Origin: Escherichia phage vB_EcoM_ESCO8
DNA length: 64,000 nucleotides
Strand: one strand, 5' to 3'
Sequence record: OM386653.1
Below the pieces are notes generated by a model. That model was not told where the DNA came from. It saw only the letters and a list, made by a program, of their open reading frames with translations, and made no database searches. Within the stretch, counting starts at the first letter, position 1. Each line of letters begins with the position of its first letter. Positions 10,689-36,380 of this stretch are shown in pieces. The translations under genes were made by a program, and so were the position numbers.

Positions 10689-11240
10689 TCAGGAAATATC
10701 AGATTGTGCTTTTAGATAAACAGCAAGGTCTGTATGCCATTTTCCTAAAAGATTTTGTCCTTTCCAACAGTCCTTATTTTCCACATCACGATCCCACATT
10801 CCCATTTTGATACCATAAATAGAATCATAAGGGCTTGCCTCTACGAACTCCTTATCTGCGTAAGCGATAAGTTTATTTTTGAGATCTTCATTTTGTGTGT
10901 ATTTAAGATACAAACCACGCTTGACAATCTTCTCCCGTAAAGAAGTCCAAGTAGCTTCATCGTAATCTTTAACTAATCTACCTAGTCGCTTATAATATGC
11001 CTGTTCTTTTTCTCCTGTATATCTTAGATCTCCGGTTAAAATAGAAGATGCAATGTTGTAATCATAAAACAAACATGCTTTTCTCCACATCATATATTGT
11101 TCCACACAAGTAAATTCAACAGAACTTGTAATAGAATTATTATACTTGGGAGCTAAAGGTTCAATAAAAGATGATAGATACCAGTTGCTAAATTCATCTT
11201 TTGCCGAGAAGAAGAACACATACTTATCAGTAATCCGCAT
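10689..11240 (-). CDS. NADAR-domain protein (YbiA-like)
   Basis: 183 aa; motifs FFFS..EFSNWY, VEQY..W.KA, and C-terminal GIKMGMW...G.N.LGK.H align with E. coli YbiA-type NADAR pattern. Confidence 0.65.
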   Translation of the reverse strand: MRITDKYVFFFSAKDEFSNWYLSSFIEPLAPKYNNSITSSVEFTCVEQYMMWRKACLFYDYNIASSILTGDLRYTGEKEQAYYKRLGRLVKDYDEATWTSLREKIVKRGLYLKYTQNEDLKNKLIAYADKEFVEASPYDSIYGIKMGMWDRDVENKDCWKGQNLLGKWHTDLAVYLKAQSDIS

Positions 11241-12413
11241 TTACATCTCCTTACTGTATACTAATTTGCCACCATATTGTGTAATAATTTTTTGAAGATT
11301 TTCCAAATCAGAAACACTTACTGTTTCTGTATAACCATCTTTCAACTCTCTTGCCGTTAAAATACCAGTTTTTAATTTTTTCTTTATAGCTCTTTCAGCA
11401 GCCCTACATTGTTTCACTGTGCTAAAATCATATAAACAAATACGCCCCATAAAAAACAGATTACGGCTCTTTTGACCGTTTAATCGTCTATCGCTATCTT
11501 TAGATATACCAAACTTAAGAGCAACTATAATATCATTATCTTTAACAATATTAATATATAATTGCTGTTGATTATGACCAGCACACTGTGGACAACCTTG
11601 ACCGAGGCTTAATAAATTACGAGCACTCCCTATCTGCTCACCATGCACAAGACAAAGATATTTAAACTTACCTATAGAAGAGGGTTTGGTAATCCAATCT
11701 ACCCAGACATACCCTTTCCCTTCTACTTCCTTTTTTACCCTATAGGTGATCTGGTCTTCTGTATACTGATAGTTCCCACAACGACACGGAATATACCCTT
11801 GTTTAAGGTTATGTCCTGCAGAGTAAAATTTACCATCACAAACACCTGCTTGAACATATTCATCATGGGAGCAAACAGGACACTCAACCATCCATACTGC
11901 ATCACGCTTGTTACGTTTCCCTGTATTGGTGAAGATAGTGCCTTCCTTAAATTCCCCTGTAGAAAAGAAATCTGCAATATGTTGATCGTCGGACATTGTT
12001 TGTCTCTCCCTCTTACATTGTGGACAACCGCTACCACGTTTAAAATTGTTAATACTTGTAGTATCCCATTTATTACCACAATGACACAACAAATCAAGTT
12101 TTGTTTTATTCCCTTTCCATTCTCCCACGTACCCTAACACCTGATACCCCCTCTTCTGTGCTATCTCTTCCAAGATCGGCAATTCTGTTTCCCATGTTAA
12201 CGGCTTCTTACCAGAACAGATAGGACAACCACGTCCCTTCTTAAAATCATTAATGTTCGTGGTGTTCCACTCTCCATGTTTAGGACAAGATAGCTTAAGT
12301 TTAGTCTTGTTCCCTTTCCATTCACCAACATAACCCAGGATTTGAATATTGCGATTTTTAGCAAGGGGTGTTAATTCTTCTTTATATTGTTCCCATGATT
12401 TTGGTGCTGTCAT
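11241..12413 (-). CDS. T5orf172 (GIY-YIG-like) domain protein with tandem zinc-ribbon modules
   Basis: 390 aa; three repeats of GYVGEWKGNKTKL..C..HG.W.TT.IN.FK.G.GCP.C followed by C-terminal LYINIV..GIS...RRL segment typical of T5orf172. Confidence 0.55.
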   Translation of the reverse strand: MTAPKSWEQYKEELTPLAKNRNIQILGYVGEWKGNKTKLKLSCPKHGEWNTTNINDFKKGRGCPICSGKKPLTWETELPILEEIAQKRGYQVLGYVGEWKGNKTKLDLLCHCGNKWDTTSINNFKRGSGCPQCKRERQTMSDDQHIADFFSTGEFKEGTIFTNTGKRNKRDAVWMVECPVCSHDEYVQAGVCDGKFYSAGHNLKQGYIPCRCGNYQYTEDQITYRVKKEVEGKGYVWVDWITKPSSIGKFKYLCLVHGEQIGSARNLLSLGQGCPQCAGHNQQQLYINIVKDNDIIVALKFGISKDSDRRLNGQKSRNLFFMGRICLYDFSTVKQCRAAERAIKKKLKTGILTARELKDGYTETVSVSDLENLQKIITQYGGKLVYSKEM

Positions 12414-12450: not shown

Positions 12451-12476
12451 AAAACCCGCCGGAGCGGGTTTTTATT
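12451..12476 (-). terminator. Rho-independent terminator (bidirectional)
   Basis: AAAACCCGC-cgga-GCGGGTTTT stem-loop with flanking T/A runs, 3' of ATPase gene. Confidence 0.65.
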
Positions 12477-12487
12477 TGCTGGCTTAC

Positions 12488-13615
12488 TTAAAACACGCTT
12501 GCCAAAGTTGCACCATTGGTGATAGTTGGTTCCAGAACAATACGGAAAGAATCTTCTGGATCATCACTAAACACAACGATTTTACCGCCTGTAATAAGAT
12601 CTGCTTTCATTTTTGTCGCATTCAATGGAATTCGAGCATCTCCTTCATCATCAAAAACCACGTAAGAGCTATTAGCAAGGGCTTCTTTAGAGTCTGCATC
12701 ACTTGGAGATGACAAGTACACGTCTAGTGTGCACGAGCCACCTAAAAAGATTGCAGGTGTGAAGTTATGCCAACTAGATACCCAGCTAACTTTCTGAAGT
12801 TTCCCATTAATAACAACGCTGCTGATATCCCACTTATTACCACCACCCAAAGAAACGCCCATCATAGAGATGCATTCTTTAAAGGATAAATCAGGGTAGA
12901 AATTAAGTTCTTCTACTATACCTTGGATCACATCAAAGGACAACTCTAAACTTACATCCCAAAGCCTTTGGAAATTATCAAAGTGTGCTTTGTTATCCAG
13001 GTTTTTATCTAAATAGTCAATCATAGTTTCTAGTGAGATTTTATCATAATTAAAATTATAAAACACACGACTAGGACGATTTAGAAAGAATTCAGAGATA
13101 AAGCCACTGTTTTTAGTTAGAATAAACAGTTTATTACCACTGCCAGTACCATCTAACAAAGTGAGAAGTGCTTCTTGATCTTGTTTCTTCTCATACACTT
13201 TATCAAACTCGTCAAAAATAATCACTGCTTTGTCGGTGATCTTGCTAATAAGTTCAATGAAATTAGCATCGCTGTAGGCTTGAGTAACCATAATAGTTGG
13301 AATACCTTCTTCTACAAGGTCACGACTAATGAGTTTGGCTAACATAGTTTTACCACTACCCTTAGTTCCTGTCAGAAGCAATCCTGTATTTTTACCTTGT
13401 GCACTCCGGCGATGGAATGTACGGATAACGTGATTTGCTCGTTTTTCTGTTTCACCATACAGAACATCCGGTACACCTGTCAGATTACCACGGCTTAAAA
13501 AATAATTGCCAAGGGGATCACGACTAACAGTATAGAATCCAGGTGGAAGATAGTTAGATTCCACGCCCATATCTTTATTTACACTTACAATATCACCATA
13601 AATCGTGTATTTCAT
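12488..13615 (-). CDS. AAA-type ATPase (paralog A)
   Basis: 375 aa; Walker A GTKGSGKT, Walker B IIFDEFDK; paralogous to 28181..29341. Confidence 0.7.
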   Translation of the reverse strand: MKYTIYGDIVSVNKDMGVESNYLPPGFYTVSRDPLGNYFLSRGNLTGVPDVLYGETEKRANHVIRTFHRRSAQGKNTGLLLTGTKGSGKTMLAKLISRDLVEEGIPTIMVTQAYSDANFIELISKITDKAVIIFDEFDKVYEKKQDQEALLTLLDGTGSGNKLFILTKNSGFISEFFLNRPSRVFYNFNYDKISLETMIDYLDKNLDNKAHFDNFQRLWDVSLELSFDVIQGIVEELNFYPDLSFKECISMMGVSLGGGNKWDISSVVINGKLQKVSWVSSWHNFTPAIFLGGSCTLDVYLSSPSDADSKEALANSSYVVFDDEGDARIPLNATKMKADLITGGKIVVFSDDPEDSFRIVLEPTITNGATLASVF

Positions 13616-13626
13616 TTTAACCCCTT

Positions 13627-14064
13627 TTATTTTTGTTGAGATGAACGAATTAAATCAGCAGCAAATTCAATCAGATACACTTTTGGTGCAATAATGATTT
13701 TTAGCCAATCAAAATTCGAAAAGAAAATAACAAATCCTAAAAAGAAAAAGAAAGCACAGACAACAAGGCCAACAATAGGTAAAGCAGATACTTCACCATA
13801 GCGATCTCGTGACCACAGGCATTCTTTATCTTTAATTGCTTTTACGAGGTTCCGCACAGCAATAAAAGTAATAAACATAAAGCAAATACTAAAAAGTTGC
13901 CATAAACCTGCGGATACTGCTTTCCACACTAATAGTTGATGGATTACTTCTGGAATTTGTTGTTTTCCAAACTCTACAACATCACTCATTGTTTGAATAG
14001 TGACGTTAACCATGTTCAGAAGTACATCCGTTGCTTTATCTGCGATTGCGTTTGTTTTACTCAT
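13627..14064 (-). CDS. hypothetical membrane protein
   Basis: ORF track 145 aa; multiple hydrophobic helices. Confidence 0.55.
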   Translation of the reverse strand: MSKTNAIADKATDVLLNMVNVTIQTMSDVVEFGKQQIPEVIHQLLVWKAVSAGLWQLFSICFMFITFIAVRNLVKAIKDKECLWSRDRYGEVSALPIVGLVVCAFFFFLGFVIFFSNFDWLKIIIAPKVYLIEFAADLIRSSQQK

Positions 14065-23568: not shown

Positions 23569-23820
23569 GTGGCAGGGTATCATTTGAAGGAGATTAGCAA
23601 AGAGGAATATGGTTCTATTGCTAAAATTCAAGAAGAGCTTTATGAACTTCAGGATGCTATTGATCAAGATTGCAAGCTGATGCAACTTATTGAGTTATCA
23701 GATATTGTAGGCGCTGTTGAAGGTGTTCTTGAACAGCATTTTCCTGATATGACGCTTCAAGATTTGATCACTATGTCGAACATTACTAAACGTGCATTCC
23801 GCAATGGAGGTCGCTCATGA
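23569..23820 (+). CDS. MazG-like nucleotide pyrophosphohydrolase domain protein (tentative)
   Basis: 83 aa, GTG start; IQEELYELQDAI ... ELSDIVGAV resembles the EExxE/D helix pair of small MazG proteins. Confidence 0.4.
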   Translation: MAGYHLKEISKEEYGSIAKIQEELYELQDAIDQDCKLMQLIELSDIVGAVEGVLEQHFPDMTLQDLITMSNITKRAFRNGGRS

Positions 23821-24389
23821 ATGTTGAAGTAATAGCCCAAGCTATTGATTACTATGGTCGGTTTGCACAAATGTTGGAAGTTCCATATCTCGTGGATGCT
23901 GATATACTGGTGTACACACTACCAGAAAATAAAGAGGATCGCCCATTAGGGCATCCTAACGGTAAATACTATGTAGCCAGTGCAGAACAATCTTTCCTGC
24001 AAATGGAGAAGGATGGTTTTGAATTTGCAGCAGGTAATCCTTATATGGCACTAACACCATGTTACCGTACAGAAGAAAATTTAGATGATACTCATTTCAA
24101 TATTTTCTTGAAATTGGAGTTGATTGAGTTCTATCCTGATGCTACAATTGAAGAGTATGCTAACTCTATGCGCTGTTTCTTCTCTACTTACTATGGAGTT
24201 AAAACATATTTAGTACCCACTAATATTGGGGTTGACGTAGAGGATGAATATGGTTTAGAATTAGGTTCATTCGGTATGAGGGAGTCTCCAAAAGGTCATC
24301 CTTATATCTATGCAACAGGTATTGCGGAGCCTAGGGCTTCACTGGCAATAAACCGTGTTGTAAATAAGATTCAAAGCATTAGCAAATAA
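23817..24389 (+). CDS. hypothetical protein
   Basis: ORF track 190 aa; weak class II aaRS-like motif (TPCYRTEE) not considered sufficient. Confidence 0.5.
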   Translation: MNVEVIAQAIDYYGRFAQMLEVPYLVDADILVYTLPENKEDRPLGHPNGKYYVASAEQSFLQMEKDGFEFAAGNPYMALTPCYRTEENLDDTHFNIFLKLELIEFYPDATIEEYANSMRCFFSTYYGVKTYLVPTNIGVDVEDEYGLELGSFGMRESPKGHPYIYATGIAEPRASLAINRVVNKIQSISK

Positions 24390-24401
24390 GAGGAGAATAG
24401 A

Positions 24402-24836
24402 ATGTCTATTGTGACACAAATGAAAGCAGATCGTATCTTAGCACGTACAACCGATAAGGGTGCTTTTGCTTTGTTAACTAATATTATTGGTGAGTTTGAC
24501 CTTGCTCGTACTCAAAAGGCAAATCTAAATAAATCAGAAGACGATATTATGATTAACATTGTTAAGATTGGTATTGCACACGCTAAAGAGGAGCTAGACT
24601 CACTTAAGAAAGTTAATGCTTCCCTTAGCAAATGTGAGCGAGCTATGCGTGATATCACCACTCTGGAAAAATATTTACCAGAAATGCTATCTGAAGATGA
24701 CCTTCGAGCGATTGCTGAAGAATTTGCCTTGACAGGCAAGAAAATGCCAGATATGATGAAACACCTTAAAGCAGAGTATCCGAATCAATATGATGGAAAA
24801 CTTGCTTCTACCATTGCAAAAGAAATTTTAAACTAA
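24402..24836 (+). CDS. hypothetical protein
   Basis: ORF track 144 aa. Confidence 0.5.
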   Translation: MSIVTQMKADRILARTTDKGAFALLTNIIGEFDLARTQKANLNKSEDDIMINIVKIGIAHAKEELDSLKKVNASLSKCERAMRDITTLEKYLPEMLSEDDLRAIAEEFALTGKKMPDMMKHLKAEYPNQYDGKLASTIAKEILN

Positions 24837-25852: not shown

Positions 25853-25880
25853 AAGCCAGCTTAATGCTGGCTTTTATTTT
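25853..25880 (+). terminator. Rho-independent terminator
   Basis: AAGCCAGC-ttaat-GCTGGCTT followed by TTATTTT. Confidence 0.65.
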
Positions 25881-25893
25881 CCACGGAGGATTA

Positions 25894-27693
25894 ATGACCC
25901 AAAAACTATATGAGGATGTAATCGGATTCCTCGAACAAACATCCGAAGAATTTACTCGTGAAAATGCAAACAAACCTGCAATGATTGTTAATACTCACCG
26001 AGACTTACTAGCAGGTATCCTAAGCAAGCACATGGCAATGACCCATATTTTACCGGAAGATCTGGCAGAATGGCATAAAAGTGGGTATGGTCACATTCAC
26101 GATTTAGATTATTTACTCTCACCTTTAACTAATTGTTGCCTGGTAAATTACCAAGATATGCTTGAGAACGGTTTCCGTATTGGTAATGCACATATTGAAA
26201 AACCAAAATCTATCGGTGTAGCGACTACTGTCCTAACTCAAATTATTCAAGCAGTAGCTTCTAGCCAATATGGTGGACAAACTTGTGCACATGTTGATAC
26301 TGGGCTTAGTCAATACGTTAAAGCAAGTTTTAATAAAATATATGCCGATGTTGGCGATTATGATATTGCTATGCGTATGGTAGATAAACAGGTCTATGAT
26401 GCAATGCAAACTTTAATCTACCAGGTGAACACTCTAATGAGTGTAAATGGTCAGTCACCTTTTATAACAATTAGTTTAGGTTTGGATACCTCTGCTTTTG
26501 GTAGAATGATCACTAAAAACTACCTAATGGTGCACAAACAAGGATTGGGAAAAGATAGGGTAACTCCTGTGTTTCCTAAAGTTATCTTCTTCTTGGAAGA
26601 TGGTGTTAACATGAAAGCTGGCGATCCAAATTATGATTTGAAGCAACTGGCAATGGAGTGTTGTGCTGAACGCATTTATCCTGATTTTATCTCTGTACCT
26701 TTAAACAAAGAAGTTACAGGATCTTCAGATGGTCGCGTCACAAGCATGGGTTGCCGTAGCTTCTTGTCATACTATGCAACAGAGCAAGGTGAAAAATATG
26801 ATGGTCGTTTCAACTTAGGCGTAGTTTCTTTAAACTTACCTATCATTGCAGCAGAGTCCCGTGAAAAGGGCATCTTATTTACTGAACTGTTGGAACAACA
26901 TATGGAGATGGCGTATAAGGCACATATGCTACGTGTTAACCGTATTAGACATACCAAAGCATCTCAAAACCCTACATTGTTTATGGAAGGGGCTTTAGCT
27001 CGACTAGAAGCTAATGAAGAGATTGGTAAGCTATTTGAAGGTGGTTATGCCTCTATTAGTATCGGTTATGTAGGTTTAGCAGAAGCTATGGAGATTTTAT
27101 ACCCAGGTAACACCAATCCAAAAGCAATGGGTAAAAACATCCTTCAATATATGAAGGATATCTGTGGCACATTTAAAGAACGTTCTGGTTTAGCTTTTAG
27201 TTTGTATGGAACACCAGCAGAATCCTTGTGCTATAAATTTGCCAAAGCATTAAATGATCGCTATCCTGGTTCTATTGATCGTGACTACTTGACAAACTCT
27301 TTCCATCAACCTGTGTGGATGCACACTACCCCGTTCCAAAAGTGGGATTATGAGGAAGGTTTTGCACAAATCAGTAATGGTGGGAACATAGGCTATGTAG
27401 AAACACCAAACCTTAAAAATAACTTGCAAGCACTGGAAACCCTTGTAGATTATGCCTACAACAAAATTCCTTATTTTGGCGTGAACCAACCTGTAGATCA
27501 GTGTTTCAAATGTGGTTTTCATGGTGAATTTAAGGCAACAGCTAAAGGCTTCGAGTGTCCAAGTTGTGGCAATCATGAGGAAGAATCTATATCTGTAATC
27601 AGAAGAGTGTCAGGATACCTGTCTGCCCCTAACTCTCGCCCTTATAATAAAGGTAAAATGCAAGAGGTATTAGAAAGGGAGAAACATTTTTGA
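25894..27693 (+). CDS. nrdD: Anaerobic ribonucleoside-triphosphate reductase (class III RNR)
   Basis: 600 aa; C-terminal Zn site CFKCGFHGEF...CPSCGN and glycyl-radical motif RRVSGYL; followed by nrdG. Confidence 0.85.
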   Translation: MTQKLYEDVIGFLEQTSEEFTRENANKPAMIVNTHRDLLAGILSKHMAMTHILPEDLAEWHKSGYGHIHDLDYLLSPLTNCCLVNYQDMLENGFRIGNAHIEKPKSIGVATTVLTQIIQAVASSQYGGQTCAHVDTGLSQYVKASFNKIYADVGDYDIAMRMVDKQVYDAMQTLIYQVNTLMSVNGQSPFITISLGLDTSAFGRMITKNYLMVHKQGLGKDRVTPVFPKVIFFLEDGVNMKAGDPNYDLKQLAMECCAERIYPDFISVPLNKEVTGSSDGRVTSMGCRSFLSYYATEQGEKYDGRFNLGVVSLNLPIIAAESREKGILFTELLEQHMEMAYKAHMLRVNRIRHTKASQNPTLFMEGALARLEANEEIGKLFEGGYASISIGYVGLAEAMEILYPGNTNPKAMGKNILQYMKDICGTFKERSGLAFSLYGTPAESLCYKFAKALNDRYPGSIDRDYLTNSFHQPVWMHTTPFQKWDYEEGFAQISNGGNIGYVETPNLKNNLQALETLVDYAYNKIPYFGVNQPVDQCFKCGFHGEFKATAKGFECPSCGNHEEESISVIRRVSGYLSAPNSRPYNKGKMQEVLEREKHF

Positions 27694-28160
27694 ATTACGC
27701 CGGATATGAACCTGTTGACATGCTCAACGGTGATGGTGTAAGATGCTCTTTGTGGGTGAGCGGTTGTAGCCACGGTTGCCGTGGCTGCTTTAACCAGAAA
27801 GCCTGGTCGTATAACTACGGACAAGAGTTCACTACTGAAACATTAGATCTTATCTTGAAAGATTTATCTCGACCTTTCATTAAAGGATTAACAGTTTTAG
27901 GTGGTGAACCTCTTGACAAAGAGAACATTGACACTGTAGAGTATGTTCTTGAGAAGGTAAGAGATTGTTTTGGAAACAAAAAAGATATTGTCTTATATAC
28001 AGGATATCTTTTTGAAGAAATTCCAGAGAAAATTAAAAAACTGGTTGACATAGTAATAGATGGTAAGTATGATATGACTCAACCAACAACGAAACGTTAT
28101 AGAGGTTCAGATAATCAACGAATGTGGGTTAAGAAAGACAACATTTGGGAATCTGACTAA
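27690..28160 (+). CDS. nrdG: Anaerobic RNR activating protein (radical SAM)
   Basis: TTG start; N-terminus MNYAGYEPVDMLNGDGVRCSLWVSGCSHGCRGCFN closely parallels E. coli NrdG N-terminus as recalled. Confidence 0.85.
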   Translation: MNYAGYEPVDMLNGDGVRCSLWVSGCSHGCRGCFNQKAWSYNYGQEFTTETLDLILKDLSRPFIKGLTVLGGEPLDKENIDTVEYVLEKVRDCFGNKKDIVLYTGYLFEEIPEKIKKLVDIVIDGKYDMTQPTTKRYRGSDNQRMWVKKDNIWESD

Positions 28161-28180: not shown

Positions 28181-29341
28181 ATGTTTACAGTATTCGGCAA
28201 TCAAATCTTCCTGCGTCAGAAGTCTGGTACAGATATTGAAGAAATTCCAGCAGGAACTTTTGGTGTAGGTGTTACTCAAAGTGGCGAGTTCTTCCTGTAT
28301 CCTAAAAACGATATGGAAGTCCCTTCAGTAACATACGGTGATACTGATGATAAATCAGAACGTATTATCAAGACGTTCCTTAGCCGCAAAGGTAAAAACA
28401 CAGGTGTTCTCCTTGAGGGTACGAAGGGTAGCGGTAAAACTTTGCAAGCTAAAATGCTGTCTTCTGCTCTTCGTGAAATGGGTATTCCTACTATTTCTAT
28501 CGGTAGTGCTTTTAATGGTGAAGGCTTTATCAATTTTATGTCTAAAATCACACAACCTGTGATGATTATGATCGATGAATTTGATAAACTGTATGCTGAA
28601 AAAGATGCACAGGATGGTTTGCTTACCCTGCTGGATGGTGTTGGTGGCTATGACAAGCTGTTTGTATTGACTAAAAATGATGGTTATGTATCAGAATTTT
28701 TGCGTAATCGCCCTAGCCGTATTTTCTACAGCTTTAACTATAAGAAACTACCTAAAGCTACTATGGATGATTATCTGGCTAAAAATCTGGAGAACAAAGC
28801 CTTTTTACCAGATTTTGAAACGCTTTATAATCTGTCCGTGGACTTGAACTTTGATATTGTTCAGTCATTAGTAGAAGAACTTAACCGTTACCCTAATGAC
28901 AAATTCTCTGATGCACTTGCATTAATGGGTATCAGTATTACTGAACACCGCTATGCTGCAAAAGAAGTTAAACTTCTGAAAGTTAACGGTGTAGATCGTA
29001 CAGGAGATGTTTCGGCAGATACCGATATTGACGGTATGACAGCACAGGGTTTGTTTAGCGGTAATCGTTATGTTGTAGCTGTAGACCATAAGCTAGGAGA
29101 AGAGCATCTTCCTGAAATGGAAGGAGTCGTTACCGTAGAAGATAAAGACGAAGAAGGTGACTACTACTGGGGTGTAGACCGTATCTTGCTGACGTATGAT
29201 GAAAAACACATCCGTACAATGGGCGGTGACGGTTATCACTTTATGTTCACCGATGATAAAGGTAACAACATTGAAGTTGTTATTAAAAACAAAGAACGTA
29301 AAAACTACACAGAGTATGTGTTTGGTGGTCGTTCTTACTAA
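28181..29341 (+). CDS. AAA-type ATPase (paralog B)
   Basis: 386 aa; GTKGSGKT, IMIDEFDK, RPSRIFYSFNY; N-terminal ~250 aa similar to 12488..13615. Confidence 0.7.
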   Translation: MFTVFGNQIFLRQKSGTDIEEIPAGTFGVGVTQSGEFFLYPKNDMEVPSVTYGDTDDKSERIIKTFLSRKGKNTGVLLEGTKGSGKTLQAKMLSSALREMGIPTISIGSAFNGEGFINFMSKITQPVMIMIDEFDKLYAEKDAQDGLLTLLDGVGGYDKLFVLTKNDGYVSEFLRNRPSRIFYSFNYKKLPKATMDDYLAKNLENKAFLPDFETLYNLSVDLNFDIVQSLVEELNRYPNDKFSDALALMGISITEHRYAAKEVKLLKVNGVDRTGDVSADTDIDGMTAQGLFSGNRYVVAVDHKLGEEHLPEMEGVVTVEDKDEEGDYYWGVDRILLTYDEKHIRTMGGDGYHFMFTDDKGNNIEVVIKNKERKNYTEYVFGGRSY

Positions 29342-29348
29342 GTGATAA

Positions 29349-29375
29349 AAGGAGGCGAAAGCCTCCTTTATTTGT
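29349..29375 (+). terminator. Rho-independent terminator
   Basis: AAGGAGGC-gaaa-GCCTCCTT followed by TATTTG. Confidence 0.6.
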
Positions 29376-29590: not shown

Positions 29591-29746
29591 ATGCTTACAG
29601 ATGATGAATATAAAGCTATCCAAGAAAAACTAACGGAACTTGAAATTCTTGCTGTCAATATTAAAGATCAATCACATGCTGGAAAGTTACTACATCAAGA
29701 GATCAATAAAATTAAGCAGATGATATTCTTTTGGACGGAGGATTAA
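29591..29746 (+). CDS. hypothetical small protein (51 aa)
   Basis: Manually read ORF MLTDDEYKAIQEKLTELEILAVNIKDQSHAGKLL...; RBS AAAGGGGAAG. Confidence 0.35.
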   Translation: MLTDDEYKAIQEKLTELEILAVNIKDQSHAGKLLHQEINKIKQMIFFWTED

Positions 29747-29748
29747 AA

Positions 29749-30405
29749 ATGACTGTTAAGCATATTTCTTTTGATGTATGGAATACTCTTATTACTGCTA
29801 ATCCTTTGTATGCAGAAGAACGCAACAAGGTTATTGCCGAGTATGCCTCTTGTTCTGAGGTAGAAGCAGCTACCGTATATAAAGAGGTAAAAACTCTCCT
29901 GGATTTAAAAGCAGAAAAAGGCATTTGTGGAACATCTAGAAATGCTTGGGAAACACTTTCTGCTCGTTTGAACATTGATCTTGATAAAGTAGATGGGTTA
30001 AAAAGAGACTGTTTAGCAATGTTTATAAAACATCCTCCAACATTAAACCCTGAACTTTGCAAGAAGTTGGAAGAGCTAAGTTCAACCTATTCTTTGAGTA
30101 TTAAAAGCAATACTAATTTTGTACCTGGTAGTTTTTTAGCTGTATATTCTGGCTTGACAAAATTACCATTCGACTTTATGCATTTTTCTGACGAGTTTTG
30201 CTTGTGTAAACCAGATCCTAGGTTTTTTAAACTCTCTTTTGATGAAATGGTAACGTTTGATCTCGCACCAGAGGAGATCTTACACGTTGGAGATAGTTTG
30301 ATCTATGATGGAAAAGCTGTTGACATAGGGATGAAGTTCTGTCATATTATTAATCCAGAAGACTTGTTGGCTAAACTTAAAAAAGAGGAACTTATTAATG
30401 CGTAA
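29749..30405 (+). CDS. HAD-superfamily hydrolase (phosphatase-like)
   Basis: Motif I FDVWNTL near N-terminus, motif IV VGDSLIYDGK near C-terminus; 8-nt overlap with next gene. Confidence 0.55.
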   Translation: MTVKHISFDVWNTLITANPLYAEERNKVIAEYASCSEVEAATVYKEVKTLLDLKAEKGICGTSRNAWETLSARLNIDLDKVDGLKRDCLAMFIKHPPTLNPELCKKLEELSSTYSLSIKSNTNFVPGSFLAVYSGLTKLPFDFMHFSDEFCLCKPDPRFFKLSFDEMVTFDLAPEEILHVGDSLIYDGKAVDIGMKFCHIINPEDLLAKLKKEELINA

Positions 30406-31255
30406 TCAAATTCAACATTTTGCTAATACTTTTACTAACCTGAAGGAAGCAAAATTTAACATTGCAGATTATTCCAAGCTAAAGTTTGGTAGTAACCAGG
30501 CAGCAAAAAGAATGGGGCGCATTCTGGCTGAAAGTTTCTTTTCCAAGTATGAAGAACGACTGGTAAATGAAAGTTTTGTTGTTATTCCATCTCCATATAA
30601 CTATGTGAAAAATGCAGCTACAGTGTTATCTGAACATTTTGTAGATCACCTCAACTACCTAATCTCTATCAAAGGAGGTAAAGCAGTGGAGTGGGATATC
30701 GTTCATCGTAAAGTGAGCTATATCAATGATTATGGATTTCTTAGCAAAGAAGATCGTAAGGCTTTGATCGATGGTGACACTTTCTCTATCAATCGTGATT
30801 TCTGGGGTAATAAAACTCTGATTTTCATTGATGATGTTAATATTACAGGAACGCACGAAGAAAAACTTATTGAAATTTTAGACAAAGAAGGTGTTGAAAA
30901 CGATACGTTTTTCCTGTACTTTGCAAAGTATGAAGGTACAGAAGCCAATACCGAAGCTGCACTTAACTTCAACTATATCAATAACCTGGCAGCTTTTATT
31001 AAAATGATTAAACAAGAAACTGATGCTAAATGTTTGGTTCGTCCTATTAAGTATCTAATGAGTCAAAGCGAAGTTGATTTTAAAATTGCACTTTCACAGC
31101 TTCCTTTGTATTATGTAGAACAACTGTTCTTTGGTTGCCTTGCAGAAGGCTACAATAACATTGAAAAATATAAAGAGAACTTTGATTTCCTACGTCAATT
31201 TTTTGAAAGCAACATTATCAACAAATCTAATGTTAAAGGGGATTATTATGTCTAA
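30398..31255 (+). CDS. Phosphoribosyltransferase-like protein (divergent type I PRTase)
   Basis: 285 aa; LIFIDDVNITGTHEE resembles PRPP-binding loop of type I PRTases; translationally coupled to HAD and macro genes. Confidence 0.45.
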   Translation: MRNQIQHFANTFTNLKEAKFNIADYSKLKFGSNQAAKRMGRILAESFFSKYEERLVNESFVVIPSPYNYVKNAATVLSEHFVDHLNYLISIKGGKAVEWDIVHRKVSYINDYGFLSKEDRKALIDGDTFSINRDFWGNKTLIFIDDVNITGTHEEKLIEILDKEGVENDTFFLYFAKYEGTEANTEAALNFNYINNLAAFIKMIKQETDAKCLVRPIKYLMSQSEVDFKIALSQLPLYYVEQLFFGCLAEGYNNIEKYKENFDFLRQFFESNIINKSNVKGDYYV

Positions 31256-31964
31256 TAAAGTAATGACTTTCGGAGATCCTATCACCAATATTACAGAAAA
31301 AGATTTTGGGCGTGTAGCAACAGATAAAGATGGTGTCTTAAGAATTCGTGTACAAGGTATTACAGCACAGGATGAATATGCTGTGTATGTTTCAGGTCTT
31401 AACTATATTGATGATCGCATTACACAAAACTTTGCACTGATCGGTGGTGTAGAGAAAATGTATTGGGAAGATGAAATTGTAACAAGTTATCCGGCAGGTA
31501 TCATTGAGGTATACGGTGATCTTTTAGCAGCAGCCGAGAGAGGCGATATAGACGCTATAGCACACTGCTGTAACTGTTTTTGCACTATGGGTAGTGGTAT
31601 TGCACCAAAAATTAAAAGCAAGTGGCCTGGTGCGTTTAAAGCAGATTGTGCCACTAAACATGGTGATTATAAAAAATTAGGTACGTTTACCAAATATATA
31701 GAAAACAATTTGACAATTTATAATTTATATGGACAATATGGTTATAGTCGTCGTGAGGAAGGTAAGCGTGACCTGAATTATGAAGCTATCTACAATGCGT
31801 TAGATAGTATGGGAGACGATGTTGTATCTTCAGGCGGTAAAATTGTAGGTTTACCAATGCTTGGTTGTGGTTTGGCTGGAGGTTCTTGGAGTATTGTAAA
31901 ACTTATGATCGAAGAAACTCTAGTAAACAAAGGTTTAAATGTAATTGTTTACAAACTGAAATAA
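31248..31964 (+). CDS. Macro-domain protein with unknown N-terminal domain
   Basis: ATG preceded by AAAGGGG; C-terminal half has macro-like IDAIAHCCNCFCTMGSGIA and LPMLGCGLAGGS motifs; ORF-track start 31131 rejected. Confidence 0.55.
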   Translation: MSNKVMTFGDPITNITEKDFGRVATDKDGVLRIRVQGITAQDEYAVYVSGLNYIDDRITQNFALIGGVEKMYWEDEIVTSYPAGIIEVYGDLLAAAERGDIDAIAHCCNCFCTMGSGIAPKIKSKWPGAFKADCATKHGDYKKLGTFTKYIENNLTIYNLYGQYGYSRREEGKRDLNYEAIYNALDSMGDDVVSSGGKIVGLPMLGCGLAGGSWSIVKLMIEETLVNKGLNVIVYKLK

Positions 31965-31973
31965 GGAGAAAGT

Positions 31974-32180
31974 ATGGCAGGTGTTTTAGCAGTATTAGGT
32001 TGTTTTATTGTTGTGTTTTTGATTGTGTTAATCCCTAGTTGGCTACTGCTTTTAGCATACAACTATATGATTGACATTATCGGCTTAGACTGGCATCATG
32101 TTCCTGTAACGTTTTGGAGTGTAGTCTGTGTGACGTTCATTCTTGCGGTACTTCGTGGTATCTTTCAATCTAACAAATAA
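31974..32180 (+). CDS. hypothetical small membrane protein
   Basis: ORF track 68 aa; two TM helices. Confidence 0.45.
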   Translation: MAGVLAVLGCFIVVFLIVLIPSWLLLLAYNYMIDIIGLDWHHVPVTFWSVVCVTFILAVLRGIFQSNK

Positions 32181-32194
32181 GAGAGGATTTTTAT

Positions 32195-32443
32195 ATGCGT
32201 AAAGTAAATGTTGAAGTGCTTGAAAAATTTAGAAACACTCGTGATTGTACTATCGGCAAGGTTTACGAGGCTATTCTCCTTGAAGATGGAGATCAAGTTC
32301 CTGCCCCGTATCACGCCTTTAATGGTCAAATCAGCAAAGTGGAAGGTGGTCTTGCTATTTGCTTTATTGATGACGTAGGTGATGCTGTAGCTTTCCCTGT
32401 CATTAACAAAGAAGATAAACTTAAAATTACAGAACTGAACTAG
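32195..32443 (+). CDS. hypothetical protein
   Basis: ORF track 82 aa. Confidence 0.5.
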   Translation: MRKVNVEVLEKFRNTRDCTIGKVYEAILLEDGDQVPAPYHAFNGQISKVEGGLAICFIDDVGDAVAFPVINKEDKLKITELN

Positions 32444-32471
32444 TTGACTTTCTTTAAAAACAGTTTATAGT
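32444..32471 (+). promoter_or_regulatory. sigma70-like promoter with leader hairpin ahead of TerC gene
   Basis: TTGACT-16nt-TATAGT followed by CATAGAG and hairpin GCGGAGGA-ttgt-CCTCCGC (32484-32502), same architecture as early-array promoters. Confidence 0.5.
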
Positions 32472-32520
32472 ATAAGACATAGAGCGGAGGATTGTCCTCC
32501 GCATTAAAGAGGAGAAAAGA

Positions 32521-33498
32521 ATGCAACTGGGTTTCCCAATTATTGATGTGGTTGTTTTAGTGGGTATTTTAGTCTTGTCGATTTGTATTGACTTCTTTGG
32601 ACACAGAGAAAACAAAGAAATTTCATTTAAATCTGCAATTGGCTGGTCAATTTTCTGGATTGGGGTATCATTAGCCTACTATGGTTTTGTATACTTCCAA
32701 CACGGTGCTGATTTTGCGAGCTTGTTCTTGAGTGGGTATGTGTTGGAGAAATCTCTTTCTGTAGATAACTTAGTAGTATTTGTAGCAGTATTCGCAAGTT
32801 TTGGTATTAAAAGCACACACTTGCAGCACAAGATTCTACTTTGGGGTATTGCAGGTGCGATTGTCTTCCGAGGTGTGTTTGTAGCAGTAGGTACTTACTT
32901 GTTGAGTTTGGGCTGGTATGTTAATATCTTCTTCGGTGCTGTCATCCTTTTCTGTGCGGCTAAAATGGTATTCGCTGGAGATAATGATGCAGAAGTTGAT
33001 TACTCTAAACACTGGGCTACTCGCATTGTTCGTAAGCTGTTCCCTGTATCTGATCAGATGGATGGTGAGAAGTTCTTCACAATCAAAAATGGTGTTCGTG
33101 TAGCAACTCCGGCTCTGGTTTGTGTGTTTGTAATGGAAATGGTTGACGTAATCTTTGCAGTAGACTCTGTTCCAGCAGTAATTGCAGTGACACAAGAACC
33201 TCTGCTGGTGTTCTCTTCGATGCTCTGTGCAATCTTAGGTTTACGTGCTCTGTTCTTTGTTCTTAGTGTTGCACTGAAGTATTTGGTTCATCTGGAGAAA
33301 GCAGTTATCGTAGTCCTGGTGTTTGTGGGTGTAAAACTGATGTATCACCCGTTTGCAGAAACTCTGCACGCAAAAGTGAGTTTCCTGCCAGCACACATTG
33401 ACCCGACGATCAGTATGTATATTGTGTTAGGTACTCTTGGGCTGGGTGTTCTTGCAAGTTTAATCTTCCCTGAAAAAGAAGACCAGGCTGTTGCTTAA
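32521..33498 (+). CDS. TerC-family integral membrane protein
   Basis: 325 aa, multi-TM; conserved EKSLSVDNLVVF and DVIFAVDSVPAV motifs. Confidence 0.75.
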   Translation: MQLGFPIIDVVVLVGILVLSICIDFFGHRENKEISFKSAIGWSIFWIGVSLAYYGFVYFQHGADFASLFLSGYVLEKSLSVDNLVVFVAVFASFGIKSTHLQHKILLWGIAGAIVFRGVFVAVGTYLLSLGWYVNIFFGAVILFCAAKMVFAGDNDAEVDYSKHWATRIVRKLFPVSDQMDGEKFFTIKNGVRVATPALVCVFVMEMVDVIFAVDSVPAVIAVTQEPLLVFSSMLCAILGLRALFFVLSVALKYLVHLEKAVIVVLVFVGVKLMYHPFAETLHAKVSFLPAHIDPTISMYIVLGTLGLGVLASLIFPEKEDQAVA

Positions 33499-33504
33499 TT
33501 CATT

Positions 33505-33528
33505 AAGCCCCTTCGGGGGCTTTATTGA
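33505..33528 (+). terminator. Rho-independent terminator
   Basis: AAGCCCC-ttcg-GGGGCTT followed by TATTGA. Confidence 0.55.
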
Positions 33529-33537
33529 GGTGATCTG

Positions 33538-33744
33538 ATGGTGGTTTTACGTGTTCTTTGGATTCTGTTTGAAAATATTTGTTTTGCTCTAGGTTTGTTT
33601 TGTTTGATTTTTATCTTGACAACATATATTGATAACCATACAATTACTATCAACAGGAACGGAGAACAGATGTATTGTTTCTCTAGGGATTTTAAAAATT
33701 GTGTTGAGATTTTAAATGAGAGGGTTACAAATGAAAAACATTAA
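33538..33744 (+). CDS. hypothetical small membrane protein
   Basis: ORF track 68 aa. Confidence 0.35.
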   Translation: MVVLRVLWILFENICFALGLFCLIFILTTYIDNHTITINRNGEQMYCFSRDFKNCVEILNERVTNEKH

Positions 33745-34321
33745 ATCTTTTATTGTTGCAGTTGTTTTAGGTAGTGCATTGCTGGTAGGTTGTGATGATT
33801 CTGAAAATGTACAAAATCAACGTTACCAACAAACACCAAATCAGATGGTAGATGAACAATATGTAAATCAGCCTGCACCTCAAGTTGTTCAAGCAGCACC
33901 TGCACAACCTTCAACAGTTGTTGTGCAAGGAGGCGGCAGTGGTTCTTCTGGCGTAGGTGAGTTTGCTACAGGTATGCTTCTTGGTCATATGTTGAGTGGT
34001 AATAGTGGCGGTGGTGGTTATAGAGATGGCGGTAGCAATACAACAATTATCAATAACAACGCTGCTCCTACAACTAATAGTAAAGCATATACAACACAAA
34101 AGCATAGGTTTTATGATAAACAAGGGAATACATATACAACCACTAAACAAAACACAATTAAGCAGCAAAGTGTACAAACGTATTCACGCCCATCAACAAC
34201 AAAAGTGAATAGTGATTACTCTGCTCGTAAGTCTTACTCAAGTCCTATTAGCTCTTATAGTAAGTCTTCGAAAAGTTATTCTTCGTCGAAACGTAGTTTT
34301 AGTAGCTCACGTCGTCGTTAA
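33731..34321 (+). CDS. Putative lipoprotein with Ser/Tyr-rich low-complexity tail
   Basis: Start MKNIKSFIVAVVLGSALLVGC (lipobox LVGC) after GAGAGGG RBS; G-rich and S/Y/K-rich C-terminus. Confidence 0.5.
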   Translation: MKNIKSFIVAVVLGSALLVGCDDSENVQNQRYQQTPNQMVDEQYVNQPAPQVVQAAPAQPSTVVVQGGGSGSSGVGEFATGMLLGHMLSGNSGGGGYRDGGSNTTIINNNAAPTTNSKAYTTQKHRFYDKQGNTYTTTKQNTIKQQSVQTYSRPSTTKVNSDYSARKSYSSPISSYSKSSKSYSSSKRSFSSSRRR

Positions 34322-34356
34322 TAATTTAATACAGATTAAATAAGAAGGAGAAACAG

Positions 34357-35208
34357 ATGAAACTAGAAGTTGGTAAAGTGTATCGCCTGGAAGGTTGGAT
34401 CTTTAATCAAGAAATTCTTGAGAAGAATAAAGATGGTTTTGAGTTTGTTGGTACTACCAAGGAAAGTATGCACAATGACGAATACTGTAAATTCGTTGGT
34501 AAAAATACAGGTCAAGAACAATTTTGCTTTAAGAGCGCAATCGGTGATTATGCTTCTGTAATGCCAACACCAGAAAAGACTTCGAAGCAATATACTGTCT
34601 TTGGTGTAAAACTTGAAGAACTTGTAGAACACCCACGTTTTGAAGAGTTCAAGGTTGCTGCAATGCGCAAGCATTCTGAAATTAAAATACATAATTTGTT
34701 TGATTTAGAAGATCGGTTTGATATCTTTATGTATGATCGCAGGGAAAAGCATTTTGATGCAACGACTTCAAAATTTGCTGCAACAGAGGATATTAAAATC
34801 CTTGATGTTGATACCTTTCTTGAGAGTGTATCGTTTGTATTCATTCCTAAATACAAAAAACGTAGTGATCATAAACGTGTGAAAGGAACTCCTCGTAAAA
34901 AACGTACTGTAAACAAAGCAACTTTGCACTTCACTTCTGGTGATAAATATACTCTCAAAGGGTTTGAAAGTGTTTTGTATGATGCTGGAACGGGTAATAT
35001 CAAGTTTATCATTAAGGCAACCTACAAAGGTACGGTATTGCACGAAGAGGCTGTTACACTACCTGTATTCGATATCTCTCGTGTTGAGGTACGGGGTGTT
35101 AAAGAGTCCTTCGATCTGGATTTCTTAACTGCTAATACCACGGGTTATGTTAATCTGGAAGCAGATGGAGCATTTATTACTACAAATTATTTAGATATGT
35201 TTGTTTAA
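34357..35208 (+). CDS. hypothetical protein
   Basis: ORF track 283 aa. Confidence 0.55.
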   Translation: MKLEVGKVYRLEGWIFNQEILEKNKDGFEFVGTTKESMHNDEYCKFVGKNTGQEQFCFKSAIGDYASVMPTPEKTSKQYTVFGVKLEELVEHPRFEEFKVAAMRKHSEIKIHNLFDLEDRFDIFMYDRREKHFDATTSKFAATEDIKILDVDTFLESVSFVFIPKYKKRSDHKRVKGTPRKKRTVNKATLHFTSGDKYTLKGFESVLYDAGTGNIKFIIKATYKGTVLHEEAVTLPVFDISRVEVRGVKESFDLDFLTANTTGYVNLEADGAFITTNYLDMFV

Positions 35209-35276
35209 TACTTAACTTGTGTTATGATGGTGGTATAGAAGTATCACCATCTACTAAAGAATATGGAGGAAATTGA

Positions 35277-36380
35277 ATGTCCAGTCCTTTTATCAGTGCC
35301 GTAAAAAGCAAACCGTCTGAAATGAGTGTATTCACGGCAACAACAGAAAAAAGTAAGTCTTTGTTTGCTCCAACTGCTATGGATGCAAGTCCTGTATATG
35401 CCCCTGCTGTTGCACGACCTGTACAAATGCTGCCTCCAATGTCTCGTGAAGAGATTGAACAGGTTGGTGCTGATGCAGGACTTACTCTTCGTAACCTTAA
35501 TGCTGAAGTGCTTAAACACCAGCGTTCATCTCAGGGAGATGAAATGAGTGAACGTTTAACTGCGCTTATTAAGCAAGCAAAGCAACTTGATCCTAACTCT
35601 ATTAAACAATCTAAAGGTTTAGGTAAACTAGTTAAGAAAGTTTTAGGTATGAAAGAAGATTTGTTTGGAGAATTTGACACCATCAATAACCGTATTGAAG
35701 GTTTGGTAAAGACACTCCAAACAGACTTGAAAAAAGAAGAAGATTCTTTACGATATCTGCAACGTTTAGAAGAGGCTATTGCAAAATATGCCCTTAGTTT
35801 AAACAGGGATATAGAGCTTCTAACAGCTACTTATGAAAAAGAAGAAATTCGCCTTAATACACTGCCTGAAAATGAGGTAGAAGAGCGTCAACGTACTCGT
35901 GATACTATGGATCTGCTTGAAATTCGTATTGCAGACCTGAAAGCCTTACGCTTACTATGTGTTCAGATGGGGCCACGTGTACAAAGTATGCAGAAAGTAT
36001 CTGCAAGTTTGATGCGATCAGCCCGTAATATTGTGAATAATGTTATCCCTGCTTACTCTGCAAACTTTTCTATGCATATTGAAAGTCTACGCCAGAAGAA
36101 AGCAGCCGATACACAGAACAATGTACTAAATGAATTTAATGCTGCTATTGCAATGGGTAGTGATTTGGCTGCACAAAACCAAATTGAAGCTACACAACTT
36201 GCTAATCGTCAAGTATTGGATATTGAAACATTACGTCGTGATCAAGAAAACTTGGTTAAAATGTTGGAAGAAACTAACCGAATCAACACTGAAGCCCGTG
36301 CTGCTCGTATTGATTACATTCAAGAAGTGCAATCTCTTGAAGATGGTATGATTCAAACTGTTAAACGTGGTCTACTTTAA
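35277..36380 (+). CDS. TelA-like (toxic anion resistance family) protein, tentative
   Basis: 367 aa, predominantly coiled-coil, size and context (between TerC and TerD/vWA) fit TelA/KlaA family; not confirmed by motif. Confidence 0.4.
   Translation: MSSPFISAVKSKPSEMSVFTATTEKSKSLFAPTAMDASPVYAPAVARPVQMLPPMSREEIEQVGADAGLTLRNLNAEVLKHQRSSQGDEMSERLTALIKQAKQLDPNSIKQSKGLGKLVKKVLGMKEDLFGEFDTINNRIEGLVKTLQTDLKKEEDSLRYLQRLEEAIAKYALSLNRDIELLTATYEKEEIRLNTLPENEVEERQRTRDTMDLLEIRIADLKALRLLCVQMGPRVQSMQKVSASLMRSARNIVNNVIPAYSANFSMHIESLRQKKAADTQNNVLNEFNAAIAMGSDLAAQNQIEATQLANRQVLDIETLRRDQENLVKMLEETNRINTEARAARIDYIQEVQSLEDGMIQTVKRGLL

Follow-up and report, generated by a model that had tools for sequence, protein, structure and literature searches.

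Two paralogous ATPases of the phage AAA+ family PHROG 2376 in Escherichia phage vB_EcoM_ESCO8

Escherichia phage vB_EcoM_ESCO8 (sequence record OM386653.1) carries, within the stretch of 64,000 nucleotides (nt) that was analysed here (the window), two genes encoding AAA+ ATPases, which are referred to below as A and B. Among the closest described systems are the classic AAA proteins p97/Cdc48 (D2 domain), VAT, Afg2 and NVL/Rix7, from which the family of A and B differs by its single compact AAA module with much shorter pore loops, by an N-terminal beta-barrel and a C-terminal beta domain that are unique to it and by its restriction to phages. The AAA domain of mitochondrial BCS1 (6u1y) is 18% identical, but the family has neither a transmembrane helix nor BCS1_N. 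The bacterial Trip13/Pch2-like ATPase of CBASS (6p8v) has a different N-terminal domain and gives no match to the family at the sequence level, and no HORMA or CD-NTase genes are found nearby. Clamp loaders (T4 gp44, RFC) possess a single-arginine SRC motif, whereas the family has a two-arginine SRH motif, no conserved sensor-2 arginine and additional beta domains at both termini. A and B are full-length members of PHROG 2376 ('ATPase'; homologues in phAPEC8, phi92 gp221, GAP32 gp367, Salmonella phage 7-11, some Herelleviridae, Lactococcus 949-like phages and others), with which they share the three-domain architecture. No characterisation of the PHROG 2376 family was found in the literature. 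NARP3 is unrelated to it.

The two genes are the following:

12488..13615, minus strand: paralogue A, AAA+ ATPase of 375 amino acids (open reading frame; phrog_2376, E=6.6e-108; PF00004, E=1.5e-9)
28181..29341, plus strand: paralogue B, AAA+ ATPase of 386 amino acids (open reading frame; phrog_2376, E=3.6e-104)

The coordinates and strands of both had been given exactly in an original prediction made from the sequence alone. Both regions match Escherichia phage outra (MN850645), a Justusliebigvirus, at 99.9% identity, and many further genomes of the genus Justusliebigvirus (Stephanstirmvirinae, phi92-like) at 98-99%. Gene A corresponds to Phi92_gp221, its homologue or orthologue, and its sequence is 100% identical across many genomes of this genus.

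The gene duplication is real and old, and it lies in a widespread, uncharacterised family of phage AAA+ proteins. We consider it probable, at roughly 0.6, that A and B represent ancient paralogues, or perhaps xenologues, within the phage-restricted SRH-type family PHROG 2376, that they are homologous over their full length and that they would work as rings remodelling a partner.

Relationship between the two ATPases

Comparison of A and B with BLASTP gave 47% identity and 70% positives over 254 aligned positions with two gaps (E=2e-82). The alignment begins at residue 2-3 of both proteins and spans the motif-free N-terminal region, the AAA module and the lid, clearly more than the generic P-loop motifs, and A and B are true AAA+ paralogues as had been proposed. 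The shared blocks on which that proposal was built (GTKGSGKT, DEFDK, LLTLLDG, RPSR(V/I)FY(N/S)FNY and VEELN(F/R)YP) are found in both; only the context of the Walker B block was slightly misread, being IIFDEFDK in A and IMIDEFDK in B. The identity is distributed unevenly, with 29% in the N-terminal domain, 56% in the AAA module, 46% in the lid and 22% in the C-terminal domain.

The original prediction held the C-terminal domains to be unrelated and proposed a duplication followed by a swap of this domain, which would have given one motor two unrelated specificity domains. This impression is understandable, since pairwise BLASTP finds no similarity past approximately residue 255, that is in the last 120-130 residues, and identity in the C-terminal domain is just about 22%. 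The PHROG 2376 profile (363 positions) nevertheless covers both proteins almost entirely, residues 1-367 of A on positions 1-357 and residues 1-376 of B on positions 2-359. Sequence sets were assembled from database searches (22 of A type, 39 of B type and six intermediate proteins of 368 amino acids, here called C type), and profiles of the C-terminal domains alone were compared with hhalign. The A and B profiles aligned collinearly over 101 columns with a probability of 82% (E=1e-5, score 36.6), against a best score of 20.6 among 30 column shuffles and approximately 12 with reversed profiles. The C-type profile matched those of A (92%, E=6e-7) and B (95.6%, E=1e-8). Moreover, bridging sequences exist, as B aligns from end to end in BLASTP with the A-type protein P0011 (38% over 384 columns) and A aligns across 362 columns with the C-type protein P0025.

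A joint alignment of the C-terminal domains contains an invariant Asn-Gly, a common acidic loop, a G-x-(K/H)-x-V-F strand and a common tail, and 115 of the 198 family members end in F, Y or W, against a background of 11%. Structure prediction, which had been suggested as a check, points in the same direction: the AlphaFold models of A and B have the same order of strands and helices in the C-terminal domain with one exception, a helix in A (residues 307-314) where B carries a longer acidic loop. In addition, Foldseek searches with the model of B returned full-length matches (380-430 columns) to ATPases of Erwinia, Salmonella, Proteus, Agrobacterium and Lactobacillus phages, and a match of this length to such distant phage ATPases implies that the three-part architecture is ancestral to the family.

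These six lines of evidence concur that the C-terminal domains of A and B are homologous. Since they are homologous and collinear, no domain swap has to be assumed, and the differences between the copies can be explained by divergence of an ancestral domain within an architecture that is family-wide. Divergence alone accounts for the pattern because the C-terminal domain is also the fastest-evolving module between orthologues: B and its Klebsiella-phage orthologue are 81% identical in the N-terminal domain, 92% in the AAA module, 89% in the lid and 48% in the C-terminal domain, and the corresponding values for A and its orthologues are 75%, 84%, 80% and 51-60%. The motor is thus conserved while the terminal domains, above all the C-terminal one, evolve fast in both lines. 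A C-terminal swap is largely refuted by the profile homology, the bridging sequences and the models, and we regard it as very unlikely.

Domain architecture and motor motifs

The AlphaFold (AF2) monomer models (pLDDT 91.3 for A and 86.1 for B) show four modules in each protein, namely an N-terminal beta-barrel, a compact AAA alpha/beta module, a helical lid and a beta-rich C-terminal domain with a flexible aromatic tail:

13451..13615, minus strand: A, residues 1-55, small N-terminal beta-barrel (five strands in the AF2 model)
13046..13450, minus strand: A, residues 56-190, AAA alpha/beta module
12851..13045, minus strand: A, residues 191-255, helical lid (AF2 helices 195-252)
12491..12850, minus strand: A, residues 256-375, beta-rich C-terminal domain and aromatic tail (AF2, hhalign)
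28181..28342, plus strand: B, residues 1-54, N-terminal beta-barrel (AF2)
28343..28741, plus strand: B, residues 55-187, AAA alpha/beta module (invariant columns)
28742..28936, plus strand: B, residues 188-252, helical lid (AF2)
28937..29338, plus strand: B, residues 253-386, beta-rich C-terminal domain and tail (AF2, hhalign, alignment of C-terminal domains)

The PF00004 scores of A (38.9 bits) and B (29.5 bits) both exceed the gathering cut-off of 21.2. In A the Walker A motif lies at G82-T90 (K89), Walker B at D135 and E136, sensor-1 at N169 and the arginine fingers at R180 and R183, with Y114 as the pore-loop-like aromatic residue; their counterparts in B are K86, D132 and E133, N166, R177 and R180, and F111. 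The catalytic residues (K89/K86, D135 E136/D132 E133 and N169/N166) do not vary across sets of 124 and 98 homologues. Among the 124 homologues the glycines and the lysine of Walker A, the Asp-Glu of Walker B and the lysine three residues further on, the D-G of LLTLLDG, the sensor-1 Asn and both arginines of N-R-P-(G/S)-R are likewise invariant, as are F227, D228 and N238 in the lid, and the N-terminal domain of A has near-invariant residues at G7, P24, L40, Y53 and G54. Both proteins thus keep all catalytic residues, and the family is a complete, and probably active, AAA+ motor of the classic type.

Some annotators labelled homologues as clamp loaders, and it could be supposed that A and B are replication accessory ATPases of this kind or DnaC-like helicase loaders. 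The motif pattern fits classic AAA proteins rather than clamp loaders: the two-arginine SRH motif N-R-P-(G/S)-R aligns with RPGR of p97, and no arginine is conserved in lid residues 191-255 of the 124 homologues, so that a conserved sensor-2 arginine is lacking. The family profile matches p97/Cdc48 D2 with E=1e-12, and the closest sequence relatives are p97, VAT, Afg2 and NVL, not RFC, clamp-loader profiles giving weak matches (1e-8 and 3e-5). Moreover, most of the genomic contexts described below are not replication modules, and one homologue lies inside tRNA arrays. We therefore find a loader function improbable.

GenBank entries for homologues of A read 'putative ATPase', 'putative ATPase or Zn metalloprotease', 'FtsH-like protease' or 'hypothetical protein', and those for B 'ATPase' or 'hypothetical protein'. 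Similarity of the AAA module, and nothing else, lies behind the protease labels. Neither the whole proteins nor the C-terminal domains match peptidase M41 or any other protease family, no membrane-anchor family is reported, and the C-terminal domain is a beta-rich domain of 120-130 amino acids with no match to any protease. An FtsH-like protease is effectively refuted by this domain content and we give it hardly any credence.

A third proposal would give A and B a BCS1-like role at the membrane, as translocases or chaperones that might, for instance, serve virion assembly close to it; Iyer et al. (2021, PMC7824862) proposed such a role for the 'BCS1 orthologues' found in jumbo phages. BCS1 is favoured over other AAA proteins by a small margin (14.5 vs 14.0 and 13.7), there is no match to BCS1_N and no transmembrane-domain family among the Pfam matches, and in the models the N-terminus forms a soluble barrel of five strands. 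In addition, the genes lie in early or metabolic regions and not in morphogenesis modules, and the 'BCS1' of PMC7824862 may be a family other than PHROG 2376. A BCS1-like role appears to us about as improbable as that of a loader.

The terminal domains gave little in database searches. Profiles of the N-terminal and of the C-terminal domain found nothing below E=0.3 among PDB sequences, and the C-terminal profile nothing below 0.016 in Pfam. Matches from other resources were confined to the nucleotide-binding part: NCBIfam gave sub-threshold P-loop matches only, the best PADLOC defence model reached 8.5e-4, likewise sub-threshold, and was limited to the P-loop region, and a single-sequence search of the PDB gave only weak P-loop matches to p97.

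Distribution and history of the family

The family was detected by tblastn in 381 phage records. The phages that carry it include Justusliebigvirus, Phapecoctavirus, GAP32-like jumbo phages, Grimontviridae, Aeromonas Lahexavirus and Agrobacterium phage Atu_ph07; further carriers are some Herelleviridae (of Bacillus, Enterococcus, Lactobacillus and Brochothrix), Lactococcus 949-like phages, Staphylococcus Sextaecvirus, Schitoviridae and a Microcystis phage. IMG/VR contributes at least 473 more loci. Since 185,579 species genomes yielded just 41 loci, almost all of them on contigs of metagenome-assembled genomes, the family is effectively restricted to phages.

When the N-terminal profile was run against 1.84 billion representatives, 2,219 matches were obtained at E<=0.001 and 512 at E<=1e-10, or approximately 500-2,200 clusters at 50% identity, some unrelated repeat proteins included. 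Nearly all matches have the same architecture, truncated fragments among them; the rest are long repeat proteins matching on a motif of about 20 residues, which are read as noise, and no new architecture was found.

Genomes with two copies are limited to Justusliebigvirus and related Klebsiella phages, to which B itself is confined; all other examined lineages have one. Phapecoctavirus has the A type only (64.5% identical), and phAPEC8 has, instead of B, genes for proteins of 63 and 201 amino acids between nrdG and the HAD gene. In a neighbour-joining tree with bootstrap, built on the first 252 aligned columns, the A clade (98%) takes in the Phapecoctavirus sequences and the B clade (100%) falls outside it, grouping weakly (45%) with the C type. 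The position of B outside the A clade implies that the split between A and B predates the divergence of Justusliebigvirus and Phapecoctavirus. B may have arisen by an ancient duplication followed by loss in Phapecoctavirus, or may have been acquired horizontally. Escherichia phage 92CQ (PV682554.1, 129.8 kb), which is otherwise Justusliebigvirus-like, has one ATPase match, of A type; it may be without B, or the record may be incomplete.

Both genes are kept in about 54 related phage genomes, and for this reason two non-redundant versions of the ATPase are plausible.

Gene neighbourhoods and proposed role

The surroundings of the family were compared at 87 loci, grouped into 35 lineages (60% identity, single linkage), with 4-5 kb scanned on each side. 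Clustering of the neighbours revealed no universal neighbour among the 87 loci; the following recur:

tRNA genes: 13 of 35 lineages, less than 100 nt from the ATPase gene in seven
RNA ligases: four of 35 lineages, three families, within 1.2 kb and immediately adjacent in three
PNK-like (AAA_33) kinase: four of 35 lineages, at most 125 nt from the ATPase gene in L035, L067 and L073 (two lineages)
Macro: three of 35 lineages
NADAR: two of 35 lineages, the A locus of the window and Atu_ph07
NAMPT/NAPRT: three of 35 lineages, NAMPT directly upstream in one environmental T4-like clade
SPFH: three of 35 lineages, immediately adjacent in Grimontviridae

In Enterococcus phage Porthos the ATPase gene is the sole large coding sequence amid about 20 tRNA genes (L007), in locus L073 it is embedded in a tRNA array, and in Lactococcus phage AM4 (L094) a tRNA gene follows 29 nt downstream; GAP32-like phages (L006, L016, L017, L023) are also among the tRNA-associated cases. 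The gene stands directly beside a tRNA gene in 20% of lineages, where approximately 5% per lineage would be expected of a random gene, the latter being a rough, uncontrolled estimate and the pattern post hoc.

The RNA ligases, confirmed with Pfam, are of three non-homologous types. RtcB lies 5 nt upstream of the ATPase gene in Proteus phage 3H10_20 (L092), a T4 Rnl1-like ligase gene follows the ATPase gene after 16 nt in Microcystis phage Mel-JY01 and after 54 nt in L035, where a PNK-like kinase flanks the opposite side, and a PHA02142-OB/RNA_ligase protein is encoded two genes away in L024 (ligase loci L092:3740-4867, L097:6168-7292, L035:5032-6273 and L024:4434-5516, and also L109). An independent set of 28 loci (genome_contigs) had RtcB nearby in two and tRNAs in five, a partial replication. 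Macro, NADAR or NAMPT/NAPRT genes taken together occur in seven lineages; Atu_ph07 has, besides NADAR, a macro gene about 4.5 kb away, and the macro genes beside distant family members are 31-41% identical. Linkage to rIIA/rIIB at eight loci, all within one clade, was left out as non-independent.

In the Grimontviridae Salmonella phage pSal-SNUABM-01 (L008) and Proteus phage 3H10_20, a gene for an SPFH/stomatin-like membrane protein comes directly after the ATPase homologue, and at a distance of 3-4 kb there are PRPP-synthetase-like and NAPRTase-like genes, which are candidates for NAD reconstitution. Iyer et al. make no mention of this ATPase.

In the window itself, the surroundings of A and B contain the following features:

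10689..11240, minus strand: stand-alone NADAR gene (PF08719, E=2.3e-36), 1.2 kb downstream of A
11241..12413, minus strand: protein of 390 amino acids with three CapR zinc-ribbon repeats and an endonuclease-like C-terminal part (phrog_681; Pfam and PHROG 'endonuclease' families)
12451..12472, minus strand: terminator-like hairpin immediately 3' of the stop codon of A
13627..14064, minus strand: predicted membrane protein of 145 amino acids (phrog_3054), 11 nt upstream of A
28045..28073, plus strand: promoter-like site (11/12 consensus matches; consensus match only) within the 3' end of nrdG, some 110 nt before B
29348..29369, plus strand: terminator-like hairpin directly 3' of B
29731..30405: HAD gene (Pfam)
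30398..31255: PRTase_3 gene, ComF-like (Pfam)
31248..31964, plus strand: macro-domain gene (PF01661; phrog_335, E=6e-64), 1.8 kb downstream of B

A is the final gene of a leftward unit, and terminators are annotated at the matching place in phage Paula. The phrog_3054 gene is probably co-transcribed with A, and a homologue of it is found near the A-type gene of locus L014. Downstream, the NADAR gene expected from the original prediction was confirmed with Pfam and is also present at the A locus in L013; the T5orf172 gene named beside it was not, as Pfam reports no such domain at E<=0.001 in the 390-residue neighbour. According to reports cited in PMC13464706, NADAR proteins of phages are anti-DarT factors. 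The CapR-repeat gene, flanked by A and the NADAR gene, resembles an inserted mobile endonuclease.

B starts 20 nt past nrdG and is followed by two small open reading frames and then by HAD, PRTase_3, macro, TerC and TelA genes. Of the neighbours predicted for it, nrdG lies directly upstream, and HAD, PRTase_3 and Macro downstream are borne out by Pfam. In the distant B-type loci L019 and L021 the ATPase gene again precedes HAD-PRTase-macro, with nrdD and nrdG absent. The genes from HAD to TelA (29731..36380: HAD hydrolase, ComF-like PRTase_3, macro, TerC membrane protein and TelA) form a Ter-like block, which phAPEC8 has without B. A and B belong to separate transcription units, each with its own terminator-like hairpin.

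Upstream of nrdD lie two small genes (23817..24836, plus strand), one for a protein of 190 amino acids whose PHROG is named 'histidyl tRNA synthetase' and which has no Pfam match, and one for a YqeY/GatB-like domain protein of 144 amino acids (PF09424, E=5e-7); both, lying near B, may be accessory genes related to translation. The nrdD gene of the window (25864..27693) is uninterrupted. In the Justusliebigvirus phage vB_vPM_PD06 (IMG/VR, L018:2233-2518) a group I intron splits nrdD into two open reading frames (Rfam RF00028, 70.4 bits, E=7e-18). A scan of the window with Rfam gave no match.

The mechanism that we consider most likely, from the motifs and domains described above, is that of an ATP-driven ring remodelling a partner. 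The subunits would assemble into a ring and hydrolyse ATP between them. The ring would then perform mechanical work on a bound macromolecule, most likely a protein, gripped through a central aromatic loop: the position corresponding to Y114 of A is aromatic in 106 of 124 sequences, is followed by x-Gly, with a polar middle residue, in 86 of 124, and sits opposite the pore-loop MWFG of p97 D2 in the profile alignment, the family loop being short. The choice of partner would be made by the fast-evolving terminal domains. To all of these steps we attach moderate confidence. The two copies would then be non-redundant specificity versions produced from separate transcription units. Because the same kinds of neighbours recur in many lineages, a counter-defence role is also proposed, in which the ATPase may act beside genes for translation maintenance, RNA repair and NAD/ADP-ribose counter-defence; our confidence in this last step is low.

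Several observations weigh against the partner-remodelling reading and the role attached to it. tRNA genes are absent from the window, where no RNA ligase was seen either. A hairpin and intervening genes separate A from the NADAR gene and B from the macro gene. The context associations concern a minority of lineages and were spotted post hoc, and the tRNA, RNA-ligase and ADP-ribose neighbours are a lead, not proof. The pore loops of both proteins are far shorter than those of p97 or FtsH, and the glycine of Ar-x-Gly is replaced by Asp in A; for these two reasons a threading mechanism is plausible but insecure. Moreover the terminal domains are without detectable relatives in PDB sequences or Pfam and, having no known relatives, yield no clue to function.

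A bolder proposal is that PHROG 2376 would be an unrecognised motor within the set of phage genes that keeps translation running under attack (tRNA supply, tRNA/RNA repair and NAD/ADP-ribose clean-up), the family having split in this phage into a version near NADAR (A) and another near macro (B). We consider this unlikely. If it were true, the ATPase could, for instance, extract cleaved tRNAs or stalled complexes so that they can be repaired, or could dismantle host anticodon nucleases or NADases.

Large virulent phages commonly carry a member of the family, whether their hosts are Gram-negative or Gram-positive. Its annotations in GenBank disagree with one another ('DNA polymerase III beta' as well as clamp loader and FtsH-like protease), and those as protease or clamp loader should be abandoned. 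The phages with two copies offer a natural test of what the variable domains specify. More than the duplication, it is the family itself and its recurring genomic neighbours that make these genes interesting, and they present a defined target for experiment: a complete, probably active motor with fast-evolving private terminal domains and recurrent tRNA, RNA-ligase and ADP-ribose or NAD neighbours.

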